Below, in pieces: positions 9,315 through 51,149 of a stretch of DNA of 64,000 nt. The position numbers were made by a program, and so were the translations under genes. The DNA lies in the IMG/VR virus record IMGVR_UViG_3300047373_000743, positions 10,240-74,239 of that record. One strand, written 5' to 3'. Every line of letters begins with the position of its first letter. Positions within the stretch are counted from its first letter, which is position 1. This stretch comes from a virus. The notes under the pieces are model-generated. The model was not told the DNA's origin. It worked only from the letters and a program-made list of their open reading frames with translations, and did no database searches.

Positions 9315-9319
9315 GTTAT

Positions 9320-34764: not shown

Positions 34765-35811
34765 ATGGAAAATTCCGAAGAAAACCAAGAAGCCCAAGAA
34801 GAAACCCTTATTAAAGCAGGATTGCGTAAAGGGTATTTCACACTCGTTGAAGGGGTATACGATCCTGGTATTTTGAAGGCAGTATTTTTAGCAGGTGGCC
34901 CTGGTGCAGGTAAATCAGCAGTTGTAGACACTGTTTTTAATACTACACCCGAAGTAAAGTCATTAACATCATCGGGACTAAAAATTGTCAATAGTGATAG
35001 TTCATTTGAATACCTTCTAAAAAAAGCAGGACATAGTTTAGACTTGGGTTCACTTGACGATGAAGTATTTCAGCAAATAACAAGTGATGATCCGAATTCA
35101 ATTCGGTCACGTGCCAAAAACATTATGCTTAAACAATACGAGAATTACAAGGATGGTAGATTGGGTGTAATTATTGATGGAACTGGTGATGATTATTCTA
35201 AGATTTCAAAGCAAAAGAAAGAGTTGGAAAAACTTGGTTATGATTGTTATATGGTATTTGTTAATACAACACTCGAAGTTGCACAACAACGAAATGCTTT
35301 CCGTGCAAGAAAACTTCCACGAAAAATTGTAGATACAATATGGAAAGATGTTCAAAAGAATATGGGAAAATTTCAAAGTTCCTTCAAGCAAAATTTCACG
35401 ATTATAGATAACTCAGAAGATTTAAGAAGTAAAACAAAACCAGGTAAACTTGACCTCGCTCCATTTATATTGAAAGCAACTGCAAGATTCGTTGCAAAAC
35501 CAATTCGCAATCCTATTGGTAAACAATGGATTACTTTGATGATGAAACACGATAAAATGAACAAGAGTGGTGATAAAAGAAATCGTGTTAATGAAGAACT
35601 TGATATGATATCAATGGAAAGTGTGATTCTTCCTATGGATTTAGAACGACATTTAAGTCGTTCAATTCATGTTATCAACAAGTTCAAGTTAAATGAAAAA
35701 AGAAATTTGGCAGTGCTAACTAGGTTAATTGAAAGTCTCAATTTAAATAGAAATCAAATAAACAAGTATTTTCATCAACTCAGAACTTTAAAATTTAGAG
35801 GAGAGAAATAG
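34765..35811 (+). CDS. P-loop kinase (PNK/zeta-toxin/AAA_33-like)
   Basis: FLAGGPGAGKS, VNSD, IIDGTG and FVNTTLEVAQQRNAFR. Confidence 0.78.
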   Translation: MENSEENQEAQEETLIKAGLRKGYFTLVEGVYDPGILKAVFLAGGPGAGKSAVVDTVFNTTPEVKSLTSSGLKIVNSDSSFEYLLKKAGHSLDLGSLDDEVFQQITSDDPNSIRSRAKNIMLKQYENYKDGRLGVIIDGTGDDYSKISKQKKELEKLGYDCYMVFVNTTLEVAQQRNAFRARKLPRKIVDTIWKDVQKNMGKFQSSFKQNFTIIDNSEDLRSKTKPGKLDLAPFILKATARFVAKPIRNPIGKQWITLMMKHDKMNKSGDKRNRVNEELDMISMESVILPMDLERHLSRSIHVINKFKLNEKRNLAVLTRLIESLNLNRNQINKYFHQLRTLKFRGEK

Positions 35812-36161
35812 TGTTTGATAAACTTATAGATGAGCTTATTTCGGAAGATAAGTTGGGAGAAACTTGGAAACTTGAAATGGCTCCGAATCATGCTCGGTAT
35901 AGTTTTTCGTCGTCCAAATCCGGTAATGAAAATTGGGCAAAAAAACTTGCAAATAAATTAACGCAAAAAGAAAAAGAAGATTTCAAATTCATAGGAATTT
36001 ATAGTGAAGGTGATTCAACTGAAGGCCCTATTGTAGACGGCTATATATTTCATTGTACTGAAGAGTATTTGAATAAAGCACCTCATATGCATCGTGATAA
36101 ACGCAAGGCCTGCAAACGACATCTTAAAACAGGTAAAGTAGAAGAATATCTTGAGGACTAA
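35811..36161 (+). CDS. Hypothetical protein
   Basis: GTG start overlapping the previous stop; AGAGGAG SD. Confidence 0.65.
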   Translation: MFDKLIDELISEDKLGETWKLEMAPNHARYSFSSSKSGNENWAKKLANKLTQKEKEDFKFIGIYSEGDSTEGPIVDGYIFHCTEEYLNKAPHMHRDKRKACKRHLKTGKVEEYLED

Positions 36162-36163
36162 TT

Positions 36164-36688
36164 ATGAGCATCAAAGAATACAAACGATACAAAGATGATC
36201 CATTTTGGATGAAGTCAAAATACGATGGAGTTTCTGGTGAACAAAGATTACCTGTTCAACGCAGACTGCGTAAAGGTGAAGTAAAATTTAAGAAGGGTGA
36301 TGAAATACTTTATTATCCAAAAGGAAAAGTAATATTAGTAGGAAAAAAAGCAGAACAAGCATATCGTGACTTTCAAGCAGCTGCTCAAGATGAAGATTTT
36401 TATATGTCCCAATACGAGGAGTCAAAAATGGAAAACACAAATGAAATTAAAATAACAAGTAAAGAGTATAAGAAGGCAATTGACTTTATGTCTGATATGC
36501 ACTCTAGCATTTTGAAAGCAAAGGATAAAGTAATTAGATTTTTACAAAGAAAAGGATTTGATGACATGGCAGACAAATTGTCCGGTATGTCGAGTGGTCA
36601 GTTTAATTCGTTTGTGGCAAGCAAGGTGCATGAGCAAAAACTTAGAAATCAAATTAGAACAATCCTCACAGAGTTACTTAAAAAGTAA
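36164..36688 (+). CDS. Hypothetical two-module protein
   Basis: GAGG SD; C-terminal KLRNQIRTILTELL helix. Confidence 0.7.
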   Translation: MSIKEYKRYKDDPFWMKSKYDGVSGEQRLPVQRRLRKGEVKFKKGDEILYYPKGKVILVGKKAEQAYRDFQAAAQDEDFYMSQYEESKMENTNEIKITSKEYKKAIDFMSDMHSSILKAKDKVIRFLQRKGFDDMADKLSGMSSGQFNSFVASKVHEQKLRNQIRTILTELLKK

Positions 36689-39241
36689 ATGAAAAAAGTC
36701 TCCACAGAGTTTTATGCAAACGATTTAACGGAGTTTATGTTGGATGACTTGTTACATGAAAAGTCCGATGTTAAAAAAGTAATCGGAATATATCCTGGTA
36801 GGTTTCAACCTGCCGGTCTTCATCACTATAAAACATACAAGTGGTTAGACAAACAATTTGATGAAGCTTGGGTTGCAACAAGTGATAAAACTGATACAAC
36901 AAAAAGTCCATTGAATTTTAAGGAAAAGAATATGATATGGAAAAAGCACAAAGTAAGAAATGTGGTCAAGGTTAAAAATCCATATGTATGTGCCGAGTTG
37001 CTTGAAAATTATGATCCAGAAACTACTGCGGTTGTTTATATCTTTGGAGAAAAAGATGCAGGTAGATTGAAAACAAAAAAAGTTGACGGAACACCTGGAT
37101 ACTACCAATCATATAAAAAGAATAAAAATAATTTAGAACCATATAAAAATCACGGGTATTTTATTGTTGCTCCCCATGTAAGCATCAAGGTGCTTGGCAA
37201 AGAAGTAAACGGAACATATATACGCGAACTTCTCGGTAGTCCGAAATACACAGATTCACAAAGAGTAGAAGCATTTGAGGAGTTGTTTGGTTGGTATGAT
37301 GAAAAAATTTATGTGTATTTGAAAAAGAAGTTTGCCACATTATTTGAAAATGAAGAAATCTTTGAGGGGTTTTTACACACATATCCTAAGTTTGAAGAAC
37401 TTGTTGATTCGTTTCCACAACTGTTAAACGAAATAAGTTCAATATCTGCAATGGGTGCTTCACTTGTAGATGATGGTCCAGCTGGATACTTTCCTGGAGA
37501 TTCATATGAAACTCACACTAAAAATCGCGCCGAGCAACTTGGATATGAACTACTCGATTATGTTGTCGGTAAATCTGAAAATACAAGAAACTCGGATTAC
37601 AGACATTGGGGTGATTATGCCGGACCAGTACCCTCGGTTTCTTTTTATCCCGCGGGTGATATTGATGTAGGAACTCCTACTAATCAAATTAATACGGAAA
37701 AGAGTCTCTCTGCACATGATCAATACACAAACTTCATTTCTAAAGTTGCAGAAACTGCGGGATATAAGTTAGTAGACTTTGTAGGTTCGGAGAAGTCGAT
37801 TAGAAAACAAGATAAACAAGGAGATGAAGAACTAACAGGTGGTCATACAATCGATGTAGAAAAAACAGAAGATGGAGAAAAAGAAATAGACACCGGAGTC
37901 GAGGGTCATTCGGTTAAAGAGTCGTGTGAGACGATACTCAATGAATATGCGGAATTATTGATTGAAGGAGGAGCAGCTGGTCACATGAGTCATCCATTTG
38001 ATGATAAAGATTTAACTTTTGCTGATTTAAAAGAAATGATTCGTAGGTCATTGGCAGGTGAACTTAATGTTGAAAAGGAAGTTACTGAAAAACTTGATGG
38101 TCAAAATTTAATGTTTTCTTGGAAAGATGGCAAGTTGGTCTCGGCGAGAAATCAAGGTCATTTAAAAAACGCAGGTGCAAATGCTCCAGATGTAACTGCG
38201 TTTGAAAACATTTTTGCGGATCGTCCTGAAAACATTCGTGATGCTTTCGTGAGTGCCGTCAAAGATTTAGAATCAGCAGTTTCAAAGTTATCTGATGCAC
38301 AAAAAAATAAAGTGTTTAGGGAGGGTGAACGATTCATGAACATTGAGGTTATGACACCTGCAACACAGAATGTTATTCCTCAAAATGTAGATATGTTGGT
38401 ATTTCATGGAACACAAGCATATGATTCCGCAGGAAAACCAGTTTCCGTAGATTCTGACGGAAACGATATAACAGGTGAATTAAAAGATTCTGCTCGTATG
38501 CTAAGTGGTATGCTTAAACAAATCAATGCAGATGTTCAAAGTCGTTATTCGTTGAATGCACCAATTGTAGTGGAACTCCCTAAAAGTAAAACATTTGGAG
38601 ATTCGTTTAAAAAATATTCTGCGATGCTTGACAAACTCAAAAAAGAATTTAAATTAAAAGACAACGATAAAGTAATGAAGTATCACGATGCGTGGTGGAG
38701 AAATCTTTTGAATAAGCAACAAAGCAAATTAAAAGAAATATTTCCTGCAAAGGTATATGAAGCACTTATAGGTCGTTGGGCATATAACGATAAATCAAAC
38801 AAAATTACAACGATTAGAATGGATTTATCAGAGCAACCAAAACTTCTTGCGTGGGTAAATAAATTTGAAAAAGAAGACATCGTAAAACAATTTGAAAAAA
38901 ATATGTGGCCATTTCAATTCATCTTTTTGAAACTCGGAGCAGAGGTCTTGCAAAATGTTAAAGGATTTGTAGCAGCGGGTGGAAGTGATGATATAGCAAA
39001 AGCACTCGATGCACATACTAAAACTTTAAAAGCAAAAAAGATTAGTTCGGTAGAATCTCCTGAAAAGTTTAAAAAGGATATTGCCAAACTCTTCAAAAAC
39101 CTTGATAGATTAACTGCGATTGGTGGAACAAAAGTCATCGCACCAAGTGAAGGTGTTGTATTTCAATATAAAGGTGGAACATATAAACTAACAGGAACAT
39201 TTGCTCCTATAAATCAAATTATGGGAATAATGAGGTTCTAA
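36689..39241 (+). CDS. Fusion of an HIGH-type (cytidyltransferase-like) nucleotidyltransferase, a linker and an ATP-dependent ligase-like domain
   Basis: N-terminal GIYPGRFQP..HH, SPLNFKEK, GEKDAGRL and NGTYIR. C-terminal EKLDGQN (KxDG), MNIEV, EGVVF and YKLTG. Confidence 0.72.
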   Translation: MKKVSTEFYANDLTEFMLDDLLHEKSDVKKVIGIYPGRFQPAGLHHYKTYKWLDKQFDEAWVATSDKTDTTKSPLNFKEKNMIWKKHKVRNVVKVKNPYVCAELLENYDPETTAVVYIFGEKDAGRLKTKKVDGTPGYYQSYKKNKNNLEPYKNHGYFIVAPHVSIKVLGKEVNGTYIRELLGSPKYTDSQRVEAFEELFGWYDEKIYVYLKKKFATLFENEEIFEGFLHTYPKFEELVDSFPQLLNEISSISAMGASLVDDGPAGYFPGDSYETHTKNRAEQLGYELLDYVVGKSENTRNSDYRHWGDYAGPVPSVSFYPAGDIDVGTPTNQINTEKSLSAHDQYTNFISKVAETAGYKLVDFVGSEKSIRKQDKQGDEELTGGHTIDVEKTEDGEKEIDTGVEGHSVKESCETILNEYAELLIEGGAAGHMSHPFDDKDLTFADLKEMIRRSLAGELNVEKEVTEKLDGQNLMFSWKDGKLVSARNQGHLKNAGANAPDVTAFENIFADRPENIRDAFVSAVKDLESAVSKLSDAQKNKVFREGERFMNIEVMTPATQNVIPQNVDMLVFHGTQAYDSAGKPVSVDSDGNDITGELKDSARMLSGMLKQINADVQSRYSLNAPIVVELPKSKTFGDSFKKYSAMLDKLKKEFKLKDNDKVMKYHDAWWRNLLNKQQSKLKEIFPAKVYEALIGRWAYNDKSNKITTIRMDLSEQPKLLAWVNKFEKEDIVKQFEKNMWPFQFIFLKLGAEVLQNVKGFVAAGGSDDIAKALDAHTKTLKAKKISSVESPEKFKKDIAKLFKNLDRLTAIGGTKVIAPSEGVVFQYKGGTYKLTGTFAPINQIMGIMRF

Positions 39242-39242
39242 A

Positions 39243-40661
39243 ATGAACTTAGTAGAACGAAACTTATCAAGAACTGCACGTAGAAAAATGGCACAACGTG
39301 CTAAAAAAACAGCAAAAAAACGTGCCATTAAACGAAAAGCAAGAGCAAAGCGGATGAAAACTCGTGGTCAATTAACTTCGGCGGCAGAGAAGCTAGCAAA
39401 GAATATTTTAGTTAAGAAAATGACTGGTGGTAAAAAGTATGGTCAACTTTCTATCGGACAAAAAGAGATGGTTGATAAAAAGTTAGCAAAAAAACCAGGA
39501 TTAATAAAAAAAGTAGCAAGAAAAGTTTTTCCAAAAATTAAAGCAAAAGAAAAAGATAGAATCAAAAAAGCAAGAGCATCTGTAAACGAAACTTCAAATG
39601 AAAAGCACGGAGTATTTACGATGAATCGTGGAGATGGGGAATTTAAACTATCTGCCAAATATGTTGATGGAAAACTGGTTCCGTATCGTTTCACCAAAGA
39701 ATCATCCGCAAAAAAACATTCCGACAAAGTCGGTGGAAAGGTTTTTGAAACTCCAACCGGGGGAGTTTTTTATGTAGAGTTCACTAAGTTAGATGGACCT
39801 ATAAATGAAAAGGCAACATCTAAATCCCAGCAAAGATTATTTGGAATGGTTCACGCATATAACACTGGTGACTTAGAAAAATCGGATGTAGATGACTCCT
39901 TATATTCTAAAATTGAAAAAATCGCAAGTGGTATGTCTAAAAAAGATGCAAAGAAACTTGCTAAAACAGATCATACTGATTTACCGGAGAAAGCGTCTGT
40001 GAACGAAGATGTTGAATACAAAAACGCAAATGAAATAAAGAAACAATGGAAAAAGGAATACCCAAATGATAAGTTTACTTTCAAAAAAATTCGTGCAAAA
40101 GGAAACGATTTTTTGATGGTATTATCTCCAAAGGGTGTTGAACTTGAAAAATATCAATTTGTACCAAAAACAGGATGGACTGAAATGAACGAAAACACAG
40201 ATAATGAAGAAGATTTGAAAAGTTTGAAAAGTATGTTGGATATAGCACAATTACTTAGTGATGAGAGTCCATATTTTAAGGGACGTGGTGGCAAGAAAGA
40301 ATACATCAAGATGTTAGTCCATAAAATTAAAAAGTTGTCCGAGAGTCACGAACGATTTCTTGAAATAATTAAAGTACCAATTGAAATTGGTGATACGGTT
40401 CTTGGGGGAAAATTTAAAAACAAAAAGATTGTGGTAAAAAGTATAGGTAAAAACGAAAAGGGTGACATAACTATCAACAAAAAACCTTTACTAAAATTTC
40501 GTATAACTAAACAAACTGAAAGTAAATCTAAAAAGAAAACCCCATTTTCAAAACTAGATGCCTACAAGAAAGTGCGTAAGTCAACAATGCCCAAAAGTAG
40601 ACCTATGAAAAGTAAAAAAGCATACGATAGAAAAGATTTTAAAAAGGGTAAGTATGATTAA
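39243..40661 (+). CDS. Basic multi-module putative head-internal protein
   Basis: K/R-rich N-terminus; short modules separated by VNE/INE/MNE (e.g. KATSKSQQRLFGMVHA). Confidence 0.65.
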   Translation: MNLVERNLSRTARRKMAQRAKKTAKKRAIKRKARAKRMKTRGQLTSAAEKLAKNILVKKMTGGKKYGQLSIGQKEMVDKKLAKKPGLIKKVARKVFPKIKAKEKDRIKKARASVNETSNEKHGVFTMNRGDGEFKLSAKYVDGKLVPYRFTKESSAKKHSDKVGGKVFETPTGGVFYVEFTKLDGPINEKATSKSQQRLFGMVHAYNTGDLEKSDVDDSLYSKIEKIASGMSKKDAKKLAKTDHTDLPEKASVNEDVEYKNANEIKKQWKKEYPNDKFTFKKIRAKGNDFLMVLSPKGVELEKYQFVPKTGWTEMNENTDNEEDLKSLKSMLDIAQLLSDESPYFKGRGGKKEYIKMLVHKIKKLSESHERFLEIIKVPIEIGDTVLGGKFKNKKIVVKSIGKNEKGDITINKKPLLKFRITKQTESKSKKKTPFSKLDAYKKVRKSTMPKSRPMKSKKAYDRKDFKKGKYD

Positions 40662-41010
40662 ACTCATGGATGCAGTTATCGGAACGGTGAGTGACAAAGT
40701 AACCATCTCTGTTCAAATCAATAAAACGAAACACGCAGGTGATCGTCAATCACGACATGATCATACGCAAATATCCGAGAAGGATATAATGGATGTTGCT
40801 GATAAAGCAATACCTGCTATTTCAAAAGCATTGTTGTTTGATAGAATTGATGTGGGTGATTATATCCATGTAAAAGATAAAAAAAGTGCATTAAATTTGA
40901 TCGGAATCCTTCAAGAGAAGTCTTCGTACAATCTTATGTTTGTGGTGATGACTGTTATGGTAAAATCAAACTTTGTAGCAAAACAGGGAACATATACGAT
41001 TGTTGTGTAG
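40654..41010 (+). CDS. Small protein, possible RNase-like (HAxxR...VVMTV) fold
   Basis: TKHAGDRQSRH..ISEKDI..FVVMTVM. Confidence 0.5.
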   Translation: MIKLMDAVIGTVSDKVTISVQINKTKHAGDRQSRHDHTQISEKDIMDVADKAIPAISKALLFDRIDVGDYIHVKDKKSALNLIGILQEKSSYNLMFVVMTVMVKSNFVAKQGTYTIVV

Positions 41011-41021
41011 GTAGGTGAAAC

Positions 41022-41423
41022 ATGATCAAGTTAAATGGTAACATTTATTTGGATGAGATGGAAATAGACCGAGTTGTAGGTGATACAGCAAGTCGATTCA
41101 GAACATCACATCGTGCAATTCTCCCACGTCAAATAACATACCTTGATCGTGAGTTCGTTGAAGCAATTAACGATGAAGCAAAAAACGCATCGTTATGTGC
41201 TTATTATCTGTATGGTTACGGAGAACAATACGCATCCGTTTGCAATATAATAAACGCAATTTCGGATAGATTCAGAAAAAAAGAAGAGTGTTGTAACAAG
41301 TTATATTTTATGCAATATGACTTAACAGACACCCAGCGGAAGAAGCATAGAACTCAATACGAAAACTTTTTAATAAATATTTTCCTTGAAGAGTGTATAT
41401 TAAATTTTAAAAAGTTATCATAG
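41022..41423 (+). CDS. Hypothetical protein
   Basis: AGGTG SD; clean ORF. Confidence 0.65.
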   Translation: MIKLNGNIYLDEMEIDRVVGDTASRFRTSHRAILPRQITYLDREFVEAINDEAKNASLCAYYLYGYGEQYASVCNIINAISDRFRKKEECCNKLYFMQYDLTDTQRKKHRTQYENFLINIFLEECILNFKKLS

Positions 41424-41426
41424 TAT

Positions 41427-41455
41427 TTGACAAATCATCAAAAAAATGGAATAAT
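41427..41455 (+). promoter_or_regulatory. Sigma70-type promoter
   Basis: TTGACA-17 nt-AATAAT with TG extension; ATG 41462. Confidence 0.55.
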
Positions 41456-41461
41456 AAAGTT

Positions 41462-42088
41462 ATGGCTAAAATGGATAAAGAAGATTTAAAACACGTGATT
41501 AAACGTTCACGGAAGTTGTTCAAAGGAGAGGAAATACCCAAAGTACATGGTTATGAAGGAGAAGTTGAAGAACTTGTAATCCGTCAGCCGGGTGAAGTCT
41601 GGACAGATAAAGATGGAAAAGAATGGAAACAGGTCGGCACAAACACAAAAACAAGGACCGAAACGGTAATGGACAAAATTAGAAAGTTATCAAGATCAGC
41701 ACCAAATTGTCCCAAAGAAGTTTGCACGTGTGATACCACTAAGTTTTTAGATAAAAGAATGGTAGCAATGAAAGGGTTGTGTTTTGATTGTGTACAGGAA
41801 AAAGAGCAGAAGTTAAAAGACGAAGGAAAATATGATGCGTATGAAAAAAAGACTATGCTTGAAAATGAGAAAAGTTTTTTACTAGATGCCAAGATTAAAA
41901 TGGCAGAATCAAAGCATTACATTGAAAATGATCCTCAATTTTTAAACGAAGATGGTTCACTTGAACAGTGGAATATACCAGAAAAAGGTAAGTTGATGGA
42001 AGATTTAAACTCGGATATTAAAGAAGTCGAAGATAGAATTAGTGGAATTGAAAAAGAACTTGAAGAGTTTGTTGATATAAAATTTTAA
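41462..42088 (+). CDS. Hypothetical protein with Cys cluster (putative Zn finger)
   Basis: GEVWTDKDGKEW; CPKEVCTC..CFDC. Confidence 0.7.
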   Translation: MAKMDKEDLKHVIKRSRKLFKGEEIPKVHGYEGEVEELVIRQPGEVWTDKDGKEWKQVGTNTKTRTETVMDKIRKLSRSAPNCPKEVCTCDTTKFLDKRMVAMKGLCFDCVQEKEQKLKDEGKYDAYEKKTMLENEKSFLLDAKIKMAESKHYIENDPQFLNEDGSLEQWNIPEKGKLMEDLNSDIKEVEDRISGIEKELEEFVDIKF

Positions 42089-42116
42089 AAGTTTCAACGA
42101 TACCTTGAAACTTTTT
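42087..42116 (+). terminator. Intrinsic terminator
   Basis: AAAAGTTTCAA-CGATACC-TTGAAACTTTTT. Confidence 0.65.
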
Positions 42117-42141
42117 ATATTATAGAAAATTAAATACATAT

Positions 42142-42149
42142 ATATTTAT
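42142..42149 (+). promoter_or_regulatory. ATATTTAT putative late promoter box
   Basis: 5 nt before the terminase ATG. Confidence 0.6.
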
Positions 42150-42154
42150 CCTTA

Positions 42155-43756
42155 ATGGCAGACGGACAGAAAGTGCCCTTAAGGGAAATAATAAAACAGG
42201 AATATACTGAGTGTTTGAAATCACCTTCGTACTTTATGAAAAAGTACTGCAAAATTCAACATCCAACTCTTGGCACAATTCCGTTTGCTTTATACGATTT
42301 CCAGGATAAAACATTAGAAAGTTTTCGTGACGAACAATTCAATATAGTTCTCAAAGCTAGGCAAATGGGAATTTCTACATTAGTATCTGGATATGCGTTG
42401 TGGCTAATGACATTTTTCACAGACAAATCTATTTTATGTATTGCTATTAACCAAGAAACTGCAAAGAATGTTGTTACTAAGGTAACTCATATGTCTGAGA
42501 ATTTACCAAGTTGGTTACGAAGTGAGAGTACTGAAAAAAATAAACTCAGTATGAAATTTAAAAACGGAAGCAGTATACGGGCTGCTCCTGCAACCGCAGA
42601 TGCTTCTCGTTCGTCATCTTTGAGTTTACTTATTGTGGACGAGTGTGCGTTTATTCAGAATATGGAAGATATATGGACTGCATCACAATCAACGATTACA
42701 ACAGGTGGTTGTTCTATTCTTCTTTCAACTCCAAACGGAATTGGTAACTTTTTCCACAAAACCTGGGTCGGTTCAATGGACGGATCAAACGAATTTAATC
42801 CGATCAAACTTCATTGGAATTTACATCCAGACCGGGATCAAACGTGGAGAGATGCTCAAACTAAACTACTTGGAGAAAAAGAAGCAGCTCAAGAGTGTGA
42901 TTGTGATTTTATAAGCAGTGGTCGTTCTGTGGTAGATGCAACTTTAATTGAATGGTATAAAGAAACTTTAATACGAGACCCTATCGAAAAACGAGGAGCA
43001 AATAAAGAATACTGGATATGGGAATATCCAAATCATACCAAGGATTATGTAATAGCAGCTGATGTTGCAAGGGGGGATGGACGAGACAAAAGTGCATTTC
43101 ATGTATTTGATGTAGAAAATGTCCGACAAGTTGCTGAATTCAAAGGAGAAGTAGAAACTAAAGACTTTGGGAATCTCCTTGTTGCAGTTGCAAGTGAGTT
43201 TAATGGAGCATTGCTTGTGGTAGAAAATGCCAATATAGGATGGGCTGTACTTCAGCAAATTATAGATAAAGGATATAATAATTTGTATTACACACAACGA
43301 GATTATCAGTATATAGATGAGTTTTCTCAACACACGAACAAACTTAGTCGTATGGAAAAAAATCAAGTTCCTGGTTTCACTACCTCCATAAAAACCCGAC
43401 CTTTGATTATAAGTAAAATGGAGAGTTATCTACGTGAAAAAGAAGTAGAAATATTATCCGAACGAACTATGGAAGAGCTATTCACATTTGTGTGGAGTGG
43501 ACAAAAAGCAGAAGCAATGCAAGGATACAACGATGACCTTGTTATGAGTTTGTGCATTGCATTGTGGGTTCGTGACACGGCTCTGAGGTTTAGGTCAGAG
43601 AACATAGAAACACAAAAATCATTATTTGACTATATGGGAAGTACTACGAACATGGATGCGGGTGCAAACTATAGGAATTCAGGATTACAATCAAATCCAT
43701 ATGAAATGAAGAACCCACACGGTGGAACAGAAAATTTAGACTGGTTGCTTAAATAA
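42155..43756 (+). CDS. gp17: Terminase large subunit (T4 gp17-like)
   Basis: KARQMGIST, LIVDECAF, STPNG, ADVARGDGRD and DDLVMS. Confidence 0.95.
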   Translation: MADGQKVPLREIIKQEYTECLKSPSYFMKKYCKIQHPTLGTIPFALYDFQDKTLESFRDEQFNIVLKARQMGISTLVSGYALWLMTFFTDKSILCIAINQETAKNVVTKVTHMSENLPSWLRSESTEKNKLSMKFKNGSSIRAAPATADASRSSSLSLLIVDECAFIQNMEDIWTASQSTITTGGCSILLSTPNGIGNFFHKTWVGSMDGSNEFNPIKLHWNLHPDRDQTWRDAQTKLLGEKEAAQECDCDFISSGRSVVDATLIEWYKETLIRDPIEKRGANKEYWIWEYPNHTKDYVIAADVARGDGRDKSAFHVFDVENVRQVAEFKGEVETKDFGNLLVAVASEFNGALLVVENANIGWAVLQQIIDKGYNNLYYTQRDYQYIDEFSQHTNKLSRMEKNQVPGFTTSIKTRPLIISKMESYLREKEVEILSERTMEELFTFVWSGQKAEAMQGYNDDLVMSLCIALWVRDTALRFRSENIETQKSLFDYMGSTTNMDAGANYRNSGLQSNPYEMKNPHGGTENLDWLLK

Positions 43757-43781
43757 ACAAAAAACATTAGGAGACAATAAC

Positions 43782-44390
43782 ATGAAGAAAACGCCGAATA
43801 TACTCATAGCATTGGGATTACTATTTTTTACAGGAGGTTGTGCAACACAATCATTACTACCTACCCGTGGAGTATACACGGAGTCTTCGTTTGAAACTTA
43901 TGTGCAGGTAGAAAGTGTGGTTGATAAAATCATAGTCGGAGAAACCAAGTACTCAGATTTGGTTAATATGGGTCTTGATTTGGAAAACATACCTAATGTT
44001 AAAAAACTTACATACCTTGATGTAATGAGTAAGTTTAAGTTGGATAGTCCGTCACGATTTACTTTGTTTAATAAAATAGAGTTGCCAAGTGGTGTTCTCA
44101 AAACGTTGGCTGCAAGAGAGTCCGGCCTTGCATATGAAATAAATCTAGAAAGACTTAAAAATAAACGTGAGGGAAGTGTATTTTTAGATATGCTTAATTT
44201 TAGAAAAACGGTTCATACAACAGGGTGGAATATAAGTGTGTTGATTTTGATTGTAGATGACACCGTTGAATATGTTTTGTATTCTGGTGAAAAAAATATT
44301 GATCGTTTGGAAAAGGAAAAAAATCCACTAGGACCATTTCAGGGGTTTGATGGTGGGGATATCATTGGGGCTGCAAGTGATTTACAATAA
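43782..44390 (+). CDS. Lipoprotein
   Basis: Signal peptide MKK-hydrophobic-TGGC lipobox; SD TAGGAG. Confidence 0.75.
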   Translation: MKKTPNILIALGLLFFTGGCATQSLLPTRGVYTESSFETYVQVESVVDKIIVGETKYSDLVNMGLDLENIPNVKKLTYLDVMSKFKLDSPSRFTLFNKIELPSGVLKTLAARESGLAYEINLERLKNKREGSVFLDMLNFRKTVHTTGWNISVLILIVDDTVEYVLYSGEKNIDRLEKEKNPLGPFQGFDGGDIIGAASDLQ

Positions 44391-44400
44391 TATATATTAG

Positions 44401-44429
44401 TTGACATATACATATATATTTCATACAAT
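44401..44429 (+). promoter_or_regulatory. Sigma70-type promoter upstream of portal
   Basis: TTGACA-17 nt-TACAAT. Confidence 0.65.
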
Positions 44430-44451
44430 CATACACTTATAAATTTATATT

Positions 44452-46311
44452 ATGGCAGATGACCCAACACAACAAAACAAATTCTTCGGTGCATTAAAAC
44501 GACTTTTCTCAAGTGGAGTAGTTGTTCGCAATGTAGGTGGTAAGAAACTGAAAGTAGCAGATACTGATAATTTACAATATTCAAAACGAACCCGTGATAA
44601 GTATCAACGGATGCACACTATGTATAGTGATTATGCAAGTGGTTTCAACAATCTAGGGTTTCAGGCCGCACGACTTGAGTTGTTTAGTGATTATGAAGTA
44701 ATGGATACTGATCCTATTATTTCAAGTGCATTAGACATTTATGCCGATGAATCTACTACAAAAAGTGAGTTTGGTGAAATTTTAAAAATTTCAAGTTCCG
44801 ATTCAAATGTTAAAGGTATTCTTGAAAATTTATTTTATGATATATTGAATGTTGAATTTAATTTATGGGGTTGGATTCGTAATATGTGTAAGTATGGAGA
44901 TTTTTATCTGCATCTTGAGATTGAACCTGAGTATGGAGTATTGAATGTTAAACCAATTTCAACCTACGAAATGACTCGTATAGAAGATATGGATCCTGAT
45001 AACCCACAACTCGTAATGTTCAAACAGGAAGGTACGACTAAGGCACAATACGACAATTATGAAATAGCACACTTTCGGCTGCTAGGTGACACCAATTATC
45101 TTCCTTACGGAAAGAGTATGGTAGAAGCCGCACGAAGAGGTTGGAAGCAACTTCAACTTATGGAAGATGCGATGCTCATTCATAGAATTATGAGAGCACC
45201 TGAGAAAAGAATGTTTTATATTGACATTGGTAATATTCCACCGAATGAAGTTGATAACTTTATGCAGAAGGTTATCAATAAAATGAAAAAAGTTCCATTC
45301 GTTGATGAAAAAACAGGTGACTATAATCTTAAGTTTAATTTACAAAACATGACCGAAGATTTCTTTATGCCGGTTCGTGGTGGTGACAGTGGAACTCGGA
45401 TTGAAAATTTGGGTGCTATGACTTATGATGGAACAGAAGACATTGAGTATGTCAAAAACAAAATGATGGCTGCACTTAAAGTTCCAAAAGCATTTTTAGG
45501 ATACGATGAAAGTATAACAGGTAAAGCAACTTTAGCTGCAGAAGACATTCGTTTCGCACGAACAATTGAAAGATTACAAAGAATCACGATCAGTGAGCTC
45601 ACGAAGATTGCAATTGTTCATTTGTATTCACAGGGATATAAAGATGCAAAGTTAGTAGACTTTAGTTTAAAGTTGACTAATCCATCTACAATTTTTGAAG
45701 AAGAACGGGTTAGAATTTTGTCAGAAAAATTAAGCACCGCGCGTGATATGATAGACGCAAAAATGTTTTCAAAAGATTGGGTATATGATAAAATATTTGG
45801 TCTTGCTGACGATGAAGTCAATGAAATTAGAAGTAATTTTATTGATGATGCAAAAGAATATTATAGATTAGAAAGCATTCAAAACGAAGGAAACGATCCT
45901 GCTGACCCAAATCAACCAGACGAAGAAGGAGATGATGACGGGTGGGGATTTGGTGAGTTTGATAAAATGACAGACGAAGAAAAAGAAGCAGTTCATAAAC
46001 GAAAAAAAGAAGAAAAGAAACGCAAAAACGCAGGAAACAAATATGATCATCCGGATGACAAACCGTTTGGTCGTGATTCCATTGGGGCAGATGACCGAAG
46101 AAACAACGGCCGAGATTGGGGGGATAGTCCTTTAAAATTAGAAACAGACCTGTCAAAACTTGACAAATTTCTTACAAACAAGCAAAAAGTTTCACATAAA
46201 AAGCCTACCGAAATGACCAAATTAATCTGCGAAGAAGACCCAAATACAGAGACCCCCACGACCAAAACTACACCAAGTTATTTAGACGATAAAAATATAA
46301 TAGAAAAATAA
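44452..46311 (+). CDS. gp20: Portal protein (T4 gp20-like)
   Basis: ALDIYADE, LMEDAMLIHRIMRAPEKRMFYIDIGN, EDFFMPVRG and ALKVPK. Confidence 0.95.
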   Translation: MADDPTQQNKFFGALKRLFSSGVVVRNVGGKKLKVADTDNLQYSKRTRDKYQRMHTMYSDYASGFNNLGFQAARLELFSDYEVMDTDPIISSALDIYADESTTKSEFGEILKISSSDSNVKGILENLFYDILNVEFNLWGWIRNMCKYGDFYLHLEIEPEYGVLNVKPISTYEMTRIEDMDPDNPQLVMFKQEGTTKAQYDNYEIAHFRLLGDTNYLPYGKSMVEAARRGWKQLQLMEDAMLIHRIMRAPEKRMFYIDIGNIPPNEVDNFMQKVINKMKKVPFVDEKTGDYNLKFNLQNMTEDFFMPVRGGDSGTRIENLGAMTYDGTEDIEYVKNKMMAALKVPKAFLGYDESITGKATLAAEDIRFARTIERLQRITISELTKIAIVHLYSQGYKDAKLVDFSLKLTNPSTIFEEERVRILSEKLSTARDMIDAKMFSKDWVYDKIFGLADDEVNEIRSNFIDDAKEYYRLESIQNEGNDPADPNQPDEEGDDDGWGFGEFDKMTDEEKEAVHKRKKEEKKRKNAGNKYDHPDDKPFGRDSIGADDRRNNGRDWGDSPLKLETDLSKLDKFLTNKQKVSHKKPTEMTKLICEEDPNTETPTTKTTPSYLDDKNIIEK

Positions 46312-46329
46312 TTAGTTAAAATCTATTTT

Positions 46330-46343
46330 ATATTTATATTTAT
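46330..46343 (+). promoter_or_regulatory. Tandem ATATTTAT putative late boxes
   Basis: Copies at 46330 and 46336. Confidence 0.6.
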
Positions 46344-46373
46344 ACTCGTATATATACATAAGCAAGCATTAGT

Positions 46374-47243
46374 GTGAAAAAATTAAAACATAGTAAATAC
46401 AAAAATACTGGTATATTATTTGAGTTGTTGGTACGGCAAATAACGGCCGACGTACTCGATGGCAATGATACGGCCGATGCGAATAAATTGTTAAAAAAAC
46501 ATTTTGCAGAAAATACAAGTTTAGGAAAAGAACAAAGATTATATCAGTTATTGGTTGAAGAAACTACATCTGATAAATCTCGTGCAGAGTCTTTGTTGGA
46601 AGCAGTTACTCGTAATTATAAAAAGTTATCAACAAAAGAACTTGCTTCTGCTAGATACGAGTTGGTAAAAGATATAAAAGAATCATATCCAATAAATGAT
46701 TTATTTCGTGCCAAAATTAAAAACTACAAAACATATGCAAGTATTTTTAAATTGTTTGAAAGTTATAATCCAAATGTATATTGTGATCCCACGGAGATAA
46801 TAGAGTCAACTGATACTATAATTGGAAACTTATGTACATCCCAATCAAACAAAAATGAAGTAGCTGATGTAAACGAGTACGAAAAGCAAAACGAAGATCT
46901 TAGGTTAATCACATATAAGTTGCTCGTAGATAATTTTAATAAAAAATATAGTGCATTGGATGAATCTCAACAAACACTTCTTAAAAACTACATCAATAAC
47001 ATTTCAAATACAAACAGTTTACGAGAATATATAAACAGCCAAGTTCCGTTAATTAAAACAGAGATTGAAAAATATTCTAAATTTGTAGATGATGATGTTG
47101 TAAAAATTAAGTTAAATGAGGTAGTTTCTCAATTAGATAAAACAACCGAAGGTAAAGTTGTTAAAGATTCACAGGTATCCACGTTGTTAATGAGTTATGA
47201 GTTAGTCAAGGAACTTAAACGACATGCAGACATTGGAAAATAA
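46374..47243 (+). CDS. Putative head-assembly protein
   Basis: KHSKYKNTGILFELLVRQIT; lies between portal and protease. Confidence 0.65.
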   Translation: MKKLKHSKYKNTGILFELLVRQITADVLDGNDTADANKLLKKHFAENTSLGKEQRLYQLLVEETTSDKSRAESLLEAVTRNYKKLSTKELASARYELVKDIKESYPINDLFRAKIKNYKTYASIFKLFESYNPNVYCDPTEIIESTDTIIGNLCTSQSNKNEVADVNEYEKQNEDLRLITYKLLVDNFNKKYSALDESQQTLLKNYINNISNTNSLREYINSQVPLIKTEIEKYSKFVDDDVVKIKLNEVVSQLDKTTEGKVVKDSQVSTLLMSYELVKELKRHADIGK

Positions 47244-47715
47244 ACTTAGGTCTGTAATTAGAGATATTCTCCGAGAAATTATAGAAGAATACTCAGATAT
47301 CACTGAAATAAACACAACTGCCAATATAGACGGATATCAAACTCCATATGCGTTTAGTGGTGATGATGATGACGAAGAATCTCACACAAAAAAAATAAAA
47401 TCAAGAGCAGAGGTATTTGATTTTAAATCTATTAAAAATAAAAAAGAAAATACGGTAAGTATTTCGGAAGGTAAAAGTTTATTTCATCTGTATCGTGATT
47501 CAAGTGATTATACATCCGAGCAAAAACTTGGCATCACTGTACGTGAAATAAATAAACTTTTGAGTGAGATAGATAAACTAGCTACCATTTCATCAAGATT
47601 CAAGATAGAAAAAAACATAAATAATGAAAAAATGTGGAAAACAACAAACCGATATTTAATGAAACTTGATGAAAAAATAAAAAGAATTTCAACAAAAATA
47701 AAAGAATTAAGGTAA
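47224..47715 (+). CDS. Putative prohead core/internal protein
   Basis: KLRSVIRDILREII helix; ITE and ISE sites; YQTPYAF. Confidence 0.65.
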   Translation: MQTLENKLRSVIRDILREIIEEYSDITEINTTANIDGYQTPYAFSGDDDDEESHTKKIKSRAEVFDFKSIKNKKENTVSISEGKSLFHLYRDSSDYTSEQKLGITVREINKLLSEIDKLATISSRFKIEKNINNEKMWKTTNRYLMKLDEKIKRISTKIKELR

Positions 47716-47720
47716 CCGTT

Positions 47721-48155
47721 ATGAAAAATTGTACACGACTAGATGTAGTAACTGCTAATATTAGAGAAGCTGATGATATAAAACCAAAACCATCTCCACA
47801 AAAAAACTCAGATCATATCTGGAATCTTAGAAAAAACTCCATGCCAAGTGAAGAATGGTATGTCTCAGACCAATCTTTGAAAATATCAGAAAGTATAGGA
47901 GGTGGTGAGTCAAACTTAGACGTCAGTATAGTTTATGAAAAAAAATTACAAAAATTCATAAATAAAATAGAATTTAATTTAAATCAAACCGGAGAAAAGC
48001 AACCAAGCAAACTCTCTGATAAAATAATACGTGAGTTAAATAATCTATCGTCAGCAGCCAGCGAACTTGCTCAGAGGTTATCTAAGTCCGATACACCAAC
48101 TGATCTAGTAGAAGATGTTCAAGCAGAACTACCCTCTGAAATTTCTGATGAGTGA
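47721..48155 (+). CDS. Hypothetical protein (head region)
   Basis: Clean ORF; AAGG SD. Confidence 0.6.
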   Translation: MKNCTRLDVVTANIREADDIKPKPSPQKNSDHIWNLRKNSMPSEEWYVSDQSLKISESIGGGESNLDVSIVYEKKLQKFINKIEFNLNQTGEKQPSKLSDKIIRELNNLSSAASELAQRLSKSDTPTDLVEDVQAELPSEISDE

Positions 48156-48762
48156 TCCGAGTATAGAAAAATATAAGTCTGCACTTACAAACCTTGGTGT
48201 AGCAGTTAAGTCTGCACACAAAACGAAAGAAGGAAAGCAATTATCTTCTGATTACTGGGTAGATGTCATTAAGATGTTAAAAAAAGCAAAACTTGGAATA
48301 TCGATGATGGAACTTGGAATTGATGATGAATCAGAAATATCAACTACACATGATACGTCACCTGATTCCGAGTCTAACGCAGATGATTCAAATACACCTC
48401 CAAAATCTCCACCTGATGCTACTGGTGATCCCGATAAGGACACCGATTCAAAGTTGGCTGCAATTGGTTTAAAGAAAGAATCGTATAAAAACAAACAATT
48501 TTACGACACAATGAACCACCTTGGTATATTATTATCAGAGCAGTTTGGTAAAATCAAAAAAGACGGTGCCGAGTATAGTGTGGATATTGATAGTCGTAAG
48601 TTTACAATAAAGTTTGACGATAAGTTTTTTATGGTCACCGAAGACTATAATTTTGAATTAGGTGGTACGGAAGATATTCAGAAGGTGGTTGATACATTCA
48701 CTAAATTATCGTTAGTATCACATGAAGAACTCGTAAGTGAATACAACAAAGACTTGGTTTAA
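48148..48762 (+). CDS. Hypothetical protein (head region)
   Basis: Start set at ATG 48148, overlapping the previous stop. Confidence 0.6.
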   Translation: MSDPSIEKYKSALTNLGVAVKSAHKTKEGKQLSSDYWVDVIKMLKKAKLGISMMELGIDDESEISTTHDTSPDSESNADDSNTPPKSPPDATGDPDKDTDSKLAAIGLKKESYKNKQFYDTMNHLGILLSEQFGKIKKDGAEYSVDIDSRKFTIKFDDKFFMVTEDYNFELGGTEDIQKVVDTFTKLSLVSHEELVSEYNKDLV

Positions 48763-48821
48763 TGGTTATTTCATTAAAAAAATAAATAAATCAGGATACA
48801 TATATACTTATTTATATTAAC

Positions 48822-49451
48822 ATGGCAAAAAAAGTAATAGTATCCACCCTGCCCTTCGAATTTAGTCCTGAGCAGATAAATGAAAGTATAGAAAAGAATT
48901 CTGGAAAACTGGTTGTCAGAGGAATTCTTCAAAAAGCAGCTGAGCAAAACCAAAACGGGAGAGTTTACACACGGTCTTTATTAGAACGAGAAGCAGGTAA
49001 ATATCAAGAACTGATTGATGATCGTAGAGCTCTAGGAGAACTTGACCATCCAGAGAGTAGTGTTGTTAACTTGCAAAATGTAAGTCACAATGTTACTAAA
49101 ATGTGGTGGGATGGTGATAATCTAATTGGAAATGTAGAAGTATTAGGAACTCCATCTGGTAATATTTTAAAAGAATTATTTAAGTCTGGTATCACACTTG
49201 GTATAAGTTCACGTGGAATGGGAACAACCCGTGAGAGTGAAGGAAAAACACTCGTAAACGATGATTTTGAATTGGTGGCATTTGATTTTGTTAGCAATCC
49301 ATCGACACGGGGTGCATTTCTTGAACCAGTTAATTTAAATGAATCAGTTTCATACGACAAAAAAATTGTAACATCTGGTCGTGTTTGTACACAATATTGT
49401 AAAGTAGAAGGACTTGTTCACGAAATATTAGGTGAAATCGGAGAAATGTAA
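48822..49451 (+). CDS. gp21: Prohead core protease (T4 gp21-like)
   Basis: NQNGRVY, ALGELDHP, VSH, GISSRGMG and DFVSNPST. Confidence 0.93.
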   Translation: MAKKVIVSTLPFEFSPEQINESIEKNSGKLVVRGILQKAAEQNQNGRVYTRSLLEREAGKYQELIDDRRALGELDHPESSVVNLQNVSHNVTKMWWDGDNLIGNVEVLGTPSGNILKELFKSGITLGISSRGMGTTRESEGKTLVNDDFELVAFDFVSNPSTRGAFLEPVNLNESVSYDKKIVTSGRVCTQYCKVEGLVHEILGEIGEM

Positions 49452-49912
49452 TGGGCAAAGATATTTCCAAGTTAATAAAATCAACCATTTTAGAAGTTCT
49501 AAAAGAAGAGAAACAAAAGCAACTTAATGAATTCAATCCATCAACGGGTAGGTTTGAGGATGAAGGTCTGTCATCTGAGCAAAAAAAGTTAACATCTGAA
49601 AAAATTTCTAAATTTGGTAATTATCAATCATACATCACCCATGAAGCAAAAGATACGGACATAGCAGAGGATATATGTAATATCGTTGAAAATGCGTCTA
49701 AGTATATTCTCAATGAAACAGATGATTGGTTTGATGCAATGAGTGTAAAACGTAATCTAAAAGAAATCAAAACTCTTGCTAAAGAATTTTACAAAACTGC
49801 AAACGAAAGACAAGTATACACACAACGTATGCAAAGTTTGTATGAAGATATGGGCAACATCCTAAACAGATATTTTGAAATAAACGGAGAAATTACCGAT
49901 GAACAGAAGTGA
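49451..49912 (+). CDS. Putative prohead core/internal protein
   Basis: ISKLIKSTILEVLKE helix; LNE sites; LYEDMGNILNRYFEI. Confidence 0.65.
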   Translation: MGKDISKLIKSTILEVLKEEKQKQLNEFNPSTGRFEDEGLSSEQKKLTSEKISKFGNYQSYITHEAKDTDIAEDICNIVENASKYILNETDDWFDAMSVKRNLKEIKTLAKEFYKTANERQVYTQRMQSLYEDMGNILNRYFEINGEITDEQK

Positions 49913-50630
49913 ACTTAAAAAATATGTAACAAAGATTCTGCTTGAAAAGCTCAACCAGACACCAAGTGTACACGGTAAGCTTGTTAAAAAAACACTTAGC
50001 TATCGTGGTGTGGTGAGGGAGTGTGTTGTAAGTGGAACAATTGAGGATGCAAACTCATATGCAAATGAACACAATTTATCATTTAATATTTCCGAAGATT
50101 CTCATTTTGGAGGTCATTATGTAGATGAAATGACTTCATATGAATTTCAACCAAATCCTGAATTTTATGGAGAAATGATGGAGACATCTATGTCAGCACG
50201 AGAACAACTTGCAAGAATTTGTGGAACAAACGACCAAGTACTTACAGAAGTTGATGTACAAAATACAGAAAAGTTAGTTGAATTCATTTATACAAATGAA
50301 TCTTTTTATAAAGAACGAACAAATTTGGTATTTGAGTTGATTGAAACCAAAGTTGAAAATAGACTGCACGACAGAACTCAATTTAAAAAGTTATTTGAGT
50401 ATTTGGTAAAACAATCATGTTTATTGTATACAGATGATAACATTGAATTATCTGAATCAGAACTTGAATATGCCACTAATCTAATATCTAAACGATTTTT
50501 TGACAATTATGCATCGGGTAAAGAGACCGAGGTTGAAGAAAACACTATATGTGGAAAAAAAACATTTAAAACAGGAAGTGCATTTGAGAATATGCAAAGA
50601 ATAGTATCAGGACACAATATGTTCCTATAA
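49899..50630 (+). CDS. Putative prohead core/internal protein
   Basis: MNRSELKKYVTKILLE helix; C-terminal ENMQRIVSG. Confidence 0.65.
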   Translation: MNRSELKKYVTKILLEKLNQTPSVHGKLVKKTLSYRGVVRECVVSGTIEDANSYANEHNLSFNISEDSHFGGHYVDEMTSYEFQPNPEFYGEMMETSMSAREQLARICGTNDQVLTEVDVQNTEKLVEFIYTNESFYKERTNLVFELIETKVENRLHDRTQFKKLFEYLVKQSCLLYTDDNIELSESELEYATNLISKRFFDNYASGKETEVEENTICGKKTFKTGSAFENMQRIVSGHNMFL

Positions 50631-50642
50631 GGAAATCTAAAT

Positions 50643-51149
50643 ATGAAAATTACAAAAAAAGAACTAAGAGAAGTTATTCAAGAAGTCGCAGACGAACTTG
50701 GATTATTTGAAGGTTTAACTAAAGCACAAGAAAAACTACCAGAACCACTTAAAAAAGCAATTCTTAAAAAGCAAGAGCAAGACGGAGTTTCTGATGATTC
50801 AGATGACGAAAATATCACCGAGGGAAATGCGTGGGGTCTTGCAATTAAAAAAGCAAGAGAAGAAAATCTCAAGGAATTTGAATTCAACGGAAAGAAATAC
50901 AAATTAACTGAAAAGAAAAAGAAAGTTAACGAAGAAACTGAATCCGAAGATACTGATGAGTTTGTGGGTGATGCAGAAGACGAAGTAGAAGAAGGAAACG
51001 CATTCGGTGCAGCTGTCACAAAAGCAAAAGAAGACGGAGAAAAAGAATTCGAAGTTGATGGAAAAACTTACAAGGTGACCGAAGATTGGTCGAAGATAAC
51101 ATTAGCAGAGAAACTTGATAGAATTCTTGGAAATAAACGAGTTTTGTAA
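50643..51149 (+). CDS. Putative head-internal protein with a duplicated ~30-aa module
   Basis: MKITKKELREVIQE; GNA(W/F)G.A..KA.E...KEFE..GK.YK.TE twice. Confidence 0.7.
   Translation: MKITKKELREVIQEVADELGLFEGLTKAQEKLPEPLKKAILKKQEQDGVSDDSDDENITEGNAWGLAIKKAREENLKEFEFNGKKYKLTEKKKKVNEETESEDTDEFVGDAEDEVEEGNAFGAAVTKAKEDGEKEFEVDGKTYKVTEDWSKITLAEKLDRILGNKRVL

Follow-up and report, generated by a model that had tools for sequence, protein, structure and literature searches.

Leader helices and [LIVM]-x-Glu junctions near the head genes of an uncultured marine T4-like phage: a candidate system for loading modular proteins into the prohead

The window analysed here is a 64-kb stretch (positions 10,240 to 74,239) of the 74-kb contig IMGVR_UViG_3300047373_000743 in IMG/VR, which comes from an uncultured marine T4-like phage, a distant myophage. 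Its G+C content is about 34%, and the plus strand holds all the real genes. The head cluster, whose genes are named here by their first nucleotide, runs from TerL (42155) through a lipoprotein gene (43782), the portal (44452), a gene for a 289-residue protein (46374), 47224, 47721 and 48115 to the prohead protease (48822), 49451, 49899, 50643, an acidic scaffold (51355) and the capsid protein (52700), closely spaced and with overlapping stop and start codons (Table 1). For the capsid protein, identity is 55% with Flavobacterium phage immuto and with an uncultured 484-kb phage, and 51% with Microcystis phage Mel-JY01. Relatives were represented by the best 80 of more than 580 IMG/VR matches found by a protease scan (protease identity 62 to 99%). 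The subject of this report is a T4-type prohead system in which, as we think probable, many unrelated late proteins carry a leader ending in [LIVM]-x-Glu and the same motif joins the modules of cargo proteins. As a whole, and by analogy, it looks like an enlarged, modular version of capsid protein loading in T4, and hundreds of related phages appear to share it.

Table 1. Genes of the window discussed in the text, with predicted leaders and related features (nucleotide positions of the window in parentheses; a slash marks a putative cut).
Gene	Strand	Product and matches	Leader, propeptide or terminal helix
9341..9760	+	139-residue protein of the baseplate region, with its own late-promoter-like motif	N-terminal helix (9341-9424)
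34765..35811	+	P-loop kinase (Zeta-toxin / AAA_33 type); Pfam and PHROG matches	29-residue N-terminal segment ending LVE29/GVYDPG (34765-34851)
35811..36161	+	116-residue protein; conserved across 39 loci	D-E-L-I-S-E/D-K-L-G-E/ (35811-35861)
36164..36688	+	174-residue protein	Conserved C-terminal amphipathic helix (36632-36685)
36689..39241	+	Two-enzyme protein; HIGH-motif nucleotidyltransferase at residues 25-220	Residues 1-24, ending LHE24/
39243..40661	+	Multi-module basic protein: very basic N-terminus, DUF3008-like module after INE189/ (DUF3008 match), acidic module after MNE317/, SH3-like module, basic tail	
46374..47243	+	289-residue protein, gene between portal and 47224; in 82 loci	None
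47224..47715	+	Core head gene in 81 related loci, usually directly upstream of the protease	Helix, residues 1-28, ending ITE28/INTTAN (47224-47307)
47721..48762	+	Two variable head-module genes, 47721 and 48115	
48822..49451	+	gp21-type prohead protease (Peptidase S77); PF03420 1e-27; phrog_207 4.5e-54	
49451..49912	+	Conserved head-module protein	Residues 1-19 (49451-49507)
49899..50630	+	Head-module protein	S-E-L-K-K-Y-V-T-K-I-L-L-E16/ (49899-49946)
50643..51149	+	Tandem-module precursor (predicted): one basic module A, two basic helix-hairpin modules B	Residues 1-23 (LFE/G)
51355..52671	+	Acidic scaffold at the gp22 position; 31 [LIV]xE sites	Conserved N-terminus LLKEAIADAKAVRE
52700..54148	+	gp23-type major capsid protein; PF07068 1.7e-83; 31% identity to T4 gp23	Predicted propeptide, residues 1-61 (52700-52882), ending Q-L-I-D-E/A-S-R-T-G
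60298..61002	+	234-residue protein with Gly-rich hydrophobic C-terminal half	Short N-terminal helix

In T4, a change of the Glu ahead of the cut (P1) to Asp stops processing and leaves targeting intact. The cut made by its prohead protease gp21 follows L/I-X-E; IPIII needs no more than its first 10 residues to be packaged, Alt is shortened by 7 residues, and peptides are all that processing leaves of the core proteins gp22, gp67 and gp68 (PMC9026906). The targeting sequence has already been proposed as a T4-like route to load diverse proteins (PMC9026906). An initial annotation of the window had named 48822 as gp21, and this assignment holds: besides its family match, the protein is 34% identical to T4 gp21, with NLNE/S aligned to EITE/S of T4. 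It carries a conserved [IV]NE/S near residue 21 and a conserved VNLNE174/S before a C-terminal tail of about 35 residues. In the capsid protein, LIDE61 is the predicted cut site of the propeptide; it sits 20 residues ahead of the first gp23-aligned residue, and LIDE/[ASG]S.TG is kept without exception in 21 distinct orthologs. For T4 gp23 the cut is at FLTE65/A, with a loss of 65 residues (PMC9026906). The scaffold contains two internal leader-like helices (residues 155-172 and 265-282, both matches to the leader matrix described below), while the SKLLKE start said to be common to scaffold and capsid is shared in the close subclade and not beyond it.

The N-terminus of 47224 forms an amphipathic helix with a Lys/Arg/Glu face followed by [LIVM]-x-E, an arrangement invariant in 60 of 60 distinct orthologs, and a segment (A/V/I)-(S/N)-x-T...TPYAF follows the site in all 60. 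In most clades the site reads E-L-E-E/A-S-V-T-G, similar to that of the capsid protein, and a second conserved site, ISE82/GK, is seen as VNE/GKYH in relatives. Homologs of 47224 were found only among metagenome proteins, and searches of PHROGs and Pfam gave no match for 47224, 47721, 48115, 49451, 49899, 50643 or the scaffold.

A leader matrix built solely from distant 47224 orthologs was scanned over the 22,982 windows of the contig proteome. Ranks 1 to 4 fell to the first scaffold-internal helix, the N-terminus of 9341, 47224 itself and the N-terminus of 49451, and ranks 5 to 7 to the N-terminus of TerL (likely a false positive), the second scaffold helix and the N-terminus of 50643. The leader of 49899 was weaker, at a rank of about 25; it is kept, together with LLE16, in 13 of 13 orthologs. 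In 9341 the helix is the most conserved part of the protein and persists down to 30% overall identity. The long helix is carried by 5 to 6 families within the window. Across all loci, N-terminal matrix matches were found in 11% of the non-core open reading frames (ORFs) between portal and scaffold as against 3% of those upstream of TerL or downstream of the capsid gene, with 1.6% expected from internal windows.

All the peptides and [LIV]xE sites quoted in the initial annotation are present in their ORFs. The N-terminal helices that it listed in 9341, 47224, 49451, 49899, 50643 and 35811 are conserved in orthologs, as is the C-terminal helix of 36164. Two further leaders did not hold up: the homolog of 40654 has the corresponding segment internally and without a site, and the homolog search with 61699 found none. 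In the uncultured 484-kb phage (LR756508, locus L003), several ORFs far from the head genes begin with a long helix of the K-L-R-K-I-I-R-E-E-I type, which may mean that in jumbo relatives cargo genes are scattered and can be recognised by the leader.

In more distant clades a shorter form is seen, and many unrelated small head-cluster ORFs begin with M-I-K-L-K-x-[LI]-[LIM]-x-E. When searched by a loose regular expression within the first 18 residues, with head-cluster ORFs made non-redundant, this short leader was found on 59 of 266 head-cluster ORFs (22%). Among other ORFs the share was 1.6 to 1.7%, and of 187,045 internal windows 2 matched. The mature sequences that follow it belong to at least 10 unrelated families. 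Orthologs of 49451 carry the long helix in the source subclade and a short K-L-K-x-L-L-K-E leader in distant clades, which suggests that the leader is exchangeable. The helix had first been described as one portable tag; unrelated families do carry it, but it comes in two types, the long helix and the 10-residue form of other clades.

Shared N-termini could serve quite another purpose, such as A/T-rich translation initiation, a DNA-level shuffling cassette, or membrane or chaperone targeting. Leader codons are richer in A/T and more uniform than expected (same codon 0.66 versus 0.51), an A/T bias being usual at gene starts, and the cluster genes are closely packed with stop/start overlaps. However, all six Leu codons are used in the leader and the P1 Glu is written as GAA or GAG in the proportions of the background, which points to selection on the leader peptide; on this codon diversity the DNA-level cassette was largely rejected. 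Moreover, the leader is limited to the head cluster and is not a feature of gene starts in general, it always ends in the protease motif, and the same motif recurs at internal junctions far from start codons. We regard such other purposes as very unlikely.

The clearest case of modules jointed by the motif is the 50643 family. In the window gene an acidic spacer precedes each B module and ends in ITE60/G or VEE117/G. Among 18 homologs, A is a 22-residue basic unit present in 1 to 3 copies and B a basic unit of about 30 residues present in 2 to 3 copies, with [LIV]xE/G ahead of every unit in every homolog. E23, E60 and E117, the Glu residues of the LFE, ITE and VEE boundaries drawn in the initial annotation, are invariant. 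An AlphaFold2 model of low confidence (predicted local distance difference test, pLDDT, 56) has a leader helix, folded helix-hairpin mini-modules and disordered spacers; since the spacers are modelled as disordered, the sites would be accessible.

Upstream of TerL lies a block of enzyme and multi-module genes in which the motif also stands at domain starts. The sites placed by the initial annotation at the start of the kinase (LVE29) and of the two domains of 36689 (LHE24 and LIE426) are indeed occupied by an invariant or near-invariant [LIVM]xE, whether the domain opens a gene or lies inside a fusion. For instance, the kinase domain is internal to ORFs of about 1,300 residues in relatives, where it follows INE/G or VNE/G. 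In 36689, conservation is at least 90% for E24 and complete for E426, and in all 24 of the relatives shown a leader of 20 to 25 residues ending in [LIVM]xE stands 5 to 6 residues before KKVIGIYPGRFQP (K-K-V-I-G-I-Y-P-G-R-F-Q-P core). A low-confidence linker follows the nucleotidyltransferase, and LIE426/GGAAGH then begins the ligase-like domain. In the AlphaFold2 model a helix spans residues 6-22 and a confidently predicted domain residues 28-220; confidence is low over 220-435 and moderate for the C-terminal domain. No match came from a search of PDB sequences with 36689; Foldseek placed the first domain near adenylyltransferases of nicotinic acid mononucleotide (NaMN) or nicotinamide mononucleotide (NMN) and of phosphopantetheine, weakly (E about 2e-3). 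Because Foldseek names only this N-terminal nucleotidyltransferase, the ligase label is taken from the KLDG motif. In relatives, insertions lie between the [LI]KE/ and LIE/ sites, with extra modules directly behind [LI]KE/.

Some relatives differ further in this protein. In L077 (ORF 3651-3884 compared with ORF 3-2741), and also in L067, L073 and L080, the first 50 or so residues of the ligase-like domain, including KLDG, form a separate ORF of 77 to 82 residues with its own leader ending LNE/, and the large ORF resumes the domain after LNE/G; the domain thus looks split. In L088, a close relative, a 1152-residue ORF behind the 36164 homolog has a Cys-rich extra module at the N-terminus of the nucleotidyltransferase/ligase-like protein, another module gain.

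The multi-module protein 39243 has homology breakpoints at 187, 317 and 427. Two of the sites proposed for it, INE189 and MNE317, fall at or close to the first two of these, and a third, VNE116, is not conserved. In other phages its modules lie between the protease and the scaffold or inside giant ORFs, and homologs of 48115 in relatives are fused to its DUF3008-like module. Residues 49-206 of 60298 are 38% identical (E 1e-25) to internal segments of the giant multi-module ORFs 189-3836 of L063 and 37-3387 of L061, and its hydrophobic half is one of the inserts behind [LI]KE/ in two relatives. Modules of 39243 and 60298 are thus mobile, being found in the head cluster and in giant ORFs as well as in the block ahead of TerL.

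Such shuffling is also seen in distant relatives, where single ORFs of 1,100 to 1,300 residues unite the kinase with both domains of 36689 (nucleotidyltransferase and ligase-like) and with the SH3-like and DUF3008-like parts of 39243, in a module order that is permuted between phages. The giant fusions open with a leader-like helix ending LTE/. In pairwise maps the shared segments start at the motif itself, with differing upstream contexts: the APRVPRK module start follows LTE/, LSE/ or VIE/; the kinase start GVNDPG, which corresponds to the kinase site of the window, follows INE/ or VNE/; the nucleotidyltransferase start follows IKE/, LNE/ or LKE/; and GGAYGH follows LIE/, LNE/ or LILE/. In the best-populated families (ligase-like, 47224 site 1, nucleotidyltransferase, GPDD, APRVPRK and kinase starts) the site is present in 73 to 100% of contexts, and the start of the DUF3008 module likewise carries the motif.

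The association was quantified on 421 non-redundant mosaic proteins with 393 internal homology-start breakpoints, the scaffold, the 50643 family and core genes being left out. [LIVM]xE was found at 42.5% of the breakpoints as against 17.7% expected, a 2.4-fold enrichment. Among control motifs, [LIVM]xD, xK, xQ and xN, [DE]xE and [STAG]xE gave ratios of 0.7 to 1.2, and Ex[LIVM] and [KR]xE a ratio of 1.7. The positions of the P1 Glu show peaks at 2 and 4 residues past the start of the shared segment (45 and 39 cases, compared with about 8 as background), whereas LxD and LxK are flat. At junction sites, P1' is G, A or S in 51% as against 21% (odds ratio 3.9, p = 4e-14), and P2 favours Asn. As judged from sequence, both the leader-plus-site grammar and the shuffling of modules at the motif are real features of these genomes, with the motif at many, though not all, of the module starts.

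Within the window alone the motif is far less telling. [LIV]xE is expected about once per 50 residues, and the candidates together have 94 sites compared with 57.7 from shuffles; this excess lies with the head proteins that are small and helical (z = 2.5-3.3), and 32118, a Rad50-like coiled coil, also reaches z = 2.1. Raw density was rejected as a discriminator, because helical proteins are generally enriched and the enzymes are not. The similarity of N-terminal 24-mers was rejected as a class signal, these being no more alike than internal windows, and conservation of a single site among orthologs was rejected when used alone, given the conserved [LIVM]xE of TerL and portal. The core of the initial observation is confirmed only through comparison with relatives, and some of its listed items fail. 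As to its interpretation, which is supported in part, a grammar of leader and site and the shuffling of motif-jointed modules stand; a single shared leader motif and a site at every module start do not.

With a motif this frequent, and with N-termini no more alike than internal windows, it could be argued that the Lys/Glu/Leu/Ile-rich proteins of an A+T-rich phage yield helices and [LIV]xE by chance, an argument that also draws on the failure of the weaker examples in the initial annotation. However, the enrichment at breakpoints is specific in position with flat controls, the sites are invariant across 30 to 99% identity, and the short leader is nearly confined to the starts of head-cluster ORFs, as the counts above show. 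Such a coincidence can hardly be the explanation.

Under the reading that we favour, that of a T4-type prohead system with leader-bearing late proteins and motif-jointed cargo, the leader would bind the scaffolding core, as in T4, and the protein would be built into the prohead. The protease 48822 would then cut after Glu and remove the leader. The same cut motif lies between the modules of the 50643 family, of 39243, of 36689 and of the fusions of about 1,300 residues in relatives, and so one targeted precursor could yield several small basic peptides or separate enzymes in the head. What we infer by analogy with T4 is that the leader binds the core, that the proteins are packaged, that each site is cut, and what then becomes of the products, whether they are retained, expelled or injected.

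The genes in question are plausibly late. A motif, TATATTTAT, that is similar to the T4 late promoter TATAAATA precedes the ATGs of 9341, 34765, 42155, 44452, 46374, 48822, 54242, 60298 and others, with copies at 9319, 34736, 42141, 44438, 46329, 48809, 54229, 60282 and elsewhere. Its distance to the ATG is mostly 14 to 15 nucleotides, with 30 at 34765 and about 46 for the copy at 46329. Judged on this motif, the genes behind it resemble late-expressed genes, and with these motifs the block 34765-42088 looks like one late unit abutting the packaging genes. TATATTTAT could define a late regulon of the phage group.

A more far-reaching proposal is that this large uncultured marine T4-like group carries leader-tagged polyprotein cargo, which is cut apart in the prohead by the head protease and delivered with the DNA. 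We put it forward tentatively, as a serious possibility that falls somewhat short of probable, and the same caution applies to the contents of the cargo, which would comprise a P-loop kinase, an adenylyltransferase resembling nicotinamide mononucleotide adenylyltransferase (NMNAT), a ligase-like domain and a membrane-active module, together with small basic peptides in tandem arrays. As the joints between modules are protease sites, the modules would be freely shuffled and the whole would form an evolvable platform for cargo loading.

Alternatively, only 47224, 49451, 49899 and 50643 might belong to the prohead, as core or assembly proteins with propeptides like gp67 and gp68 that are mostly degraded and expelled. 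The enzymes and 39243 would then be cytoplasmic, and the [LIVM]xE at module borders would reflect the composition of linkers and helix ends. The small head-module proteins may indeed serve in assembly or in the core and be degraded instead of injected; in T4, the head is cleared of most of its core proteins (PMC9026906). None of the enzyme families is known as phage head cargo. Several of our own results also weigh against the prohead cargo system and have to be set beside those in its favour. The kinase 34765, 36689 and 39243 have no enrichment of [LIV]xE, and conserved [LIVM]xE occurs in TerL and portal as well, the N-terminus of TerL even scoring high with the leader matrix. When the breakpoints are collapsed to 99 module-start families the excess is more modest (0.31 versus 0.18), and the site is always absent from some well-supported starts, among them IPSPSRK and PAAYSSTEAK, so that the grammar is common without being universal. 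A hidden Markov model of the 47224 family gave no match to T4 gp67, gp68 or gp22, and the leaders have no sequence similarity to that of T4 and form a helix of 16 to 28 residues in the source subclade. The C-terminal domain of 36689 is called ligase-like from its motif only, and a literature search found no virion proteome for immuto or Mel-JY01.

Even so, restricting the system to the four small proteins leaves much to be accounted for. The kinase, nucleotidyltransferase and ligase-like domains each begin directly behind a [LIVM]xE that is invariant or nearly so, both where they open a gene and where they lie in a fusion, and control motifs at the breakpoints are flat. Modules of 39243 also occur as leader-bearing genes between the protease and the scaffold, and the giant fusions start with the leader-like helix and its LTE/ site. 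Finally, the enzyme block has the late-promoter-like motif and adjoins the packaging genes. On this evidence we consider cytoplasmic enzymes beside a small processed core an unlikely, though not a negligible, explanation.

The nearest parallel is provided by the T4 internal proteins IPI, IPII, IPIII and Alt together with gp21. They share with the present system the protease family, the L/I-x-Glu cut rule, and short N-terminal leaders that several unrelated proteins have in common and that stop at the known or predicted cut; the genes are late in T4 and probably late here, the 10-residue leader of the relatives is as long as the capsid targeting sequence of T4, and Alt is an enzyme cargo (PMC9026906), as the candidate cargo here includes enzymes. 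Unlike in T4, leader-bearing families are many more, and the candidate cargo includes a P-loop kinase, an NMNAT-like nucleotidyltransferase and a ligase-like domain. The joining of modules by the motif in long multi-module or tandem-repeat precursors is undescribed for T4, and our literature search found no prior description of multi-module precursors jointed at prohead-protease sites. T4 gp22, gp67 and gp68 offer a second comparison, since their genes also lie between portal and capsid and adjoin the protease, and the proteins are helical, acidic or mixed in charge, with several L/I-x-E sites (PMC9026906). Despite this likeness to core proteins, 47224, 49451, 49899 and 50643 have no detectable homology to gp67 or gp68, and the 50643 family differs in being a variable array of folded basic mini-modules with acidic spacers.

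Many head proteins of phiKZ-like phages are processed at S/A-x-E (PMC9026906, PMC10052503). In phiKZ, 201phi2-1 and SPN3US, head, inner-body and ejection proteins have propeptides cut after Glu at a three-residue motif (PMC9026906, PMC10052503), the proteases are gp21-like, long propeptides are cut at several sites and much protein is packaged and ejected. However, the motif is S/A-x-E or A-x-E rather than [LIVM]-x-E, and the proteins carry propeptides at the N-terminus instead of forming chains of shuffled enzyme modules; the term 'polyprotein' is absent from both PMC9026906 and PMC10052503. The polyproteins of RNA viruses and retroviruses are alike in that one ORF encodes several modules separated by short motifs matching the virus's own protease. 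They differ in realm, in protease and in purpose, as they supply replication proteins rather than virion cargo, and cleavage in the present system is putative.

Some neighbouring genes deserve a short description. The gene 46374 is universally conserved; its product, whose N-terminus reads K-L-K-H-S-K-x-K-N-T-G-I-L-F-E-L-L, has no family match, and the gene is without counterpart in the T4 gene order 20-67-68-21. Between TerL and portal, the lipoprotein-like gene 43782-44390 (signal peptide plus Cys) is kept in 19 close loci, an odd location for an envelope protein. Directly upstream of TerL in nearly all loci is a gene (41462-42088 in the window) for a conserved protein of 174 to 208 residues with paired Cys motifs; it gave no family match and could be the small terminase subunit. 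In distant clades, a very basic protein of 61 to 75 residues is encoded directly upstream of the scaffold (L044:14134-14322, L063:14641-14826 and L030:12554-12739). It corresponds to L002:17188-17415 in Mel-JY01, annotated as ribosomal protein S21, and is not seen in the window.

If the proposal is right, a clear prediction can be made for virion mass spectrometry in the cultured relatives immuto and Mel-JY01, and natural cassettes of leader and site would be available for loading foreign proteins into phage heads. Sequence would be enough to mark many unannotated proteins as probable virion cargo, including possible effectors of the first minute of infection such as enzymes related to nicotinamide adenine dinucleotide (NAD) or RNA. 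The capsid targeting sequence of T4 is limited to a few internal proteins. In marine phages the same principle would be widespread, and it would extend to multi-enzyme and tandem-peptide precursors that are cut by the head protease.

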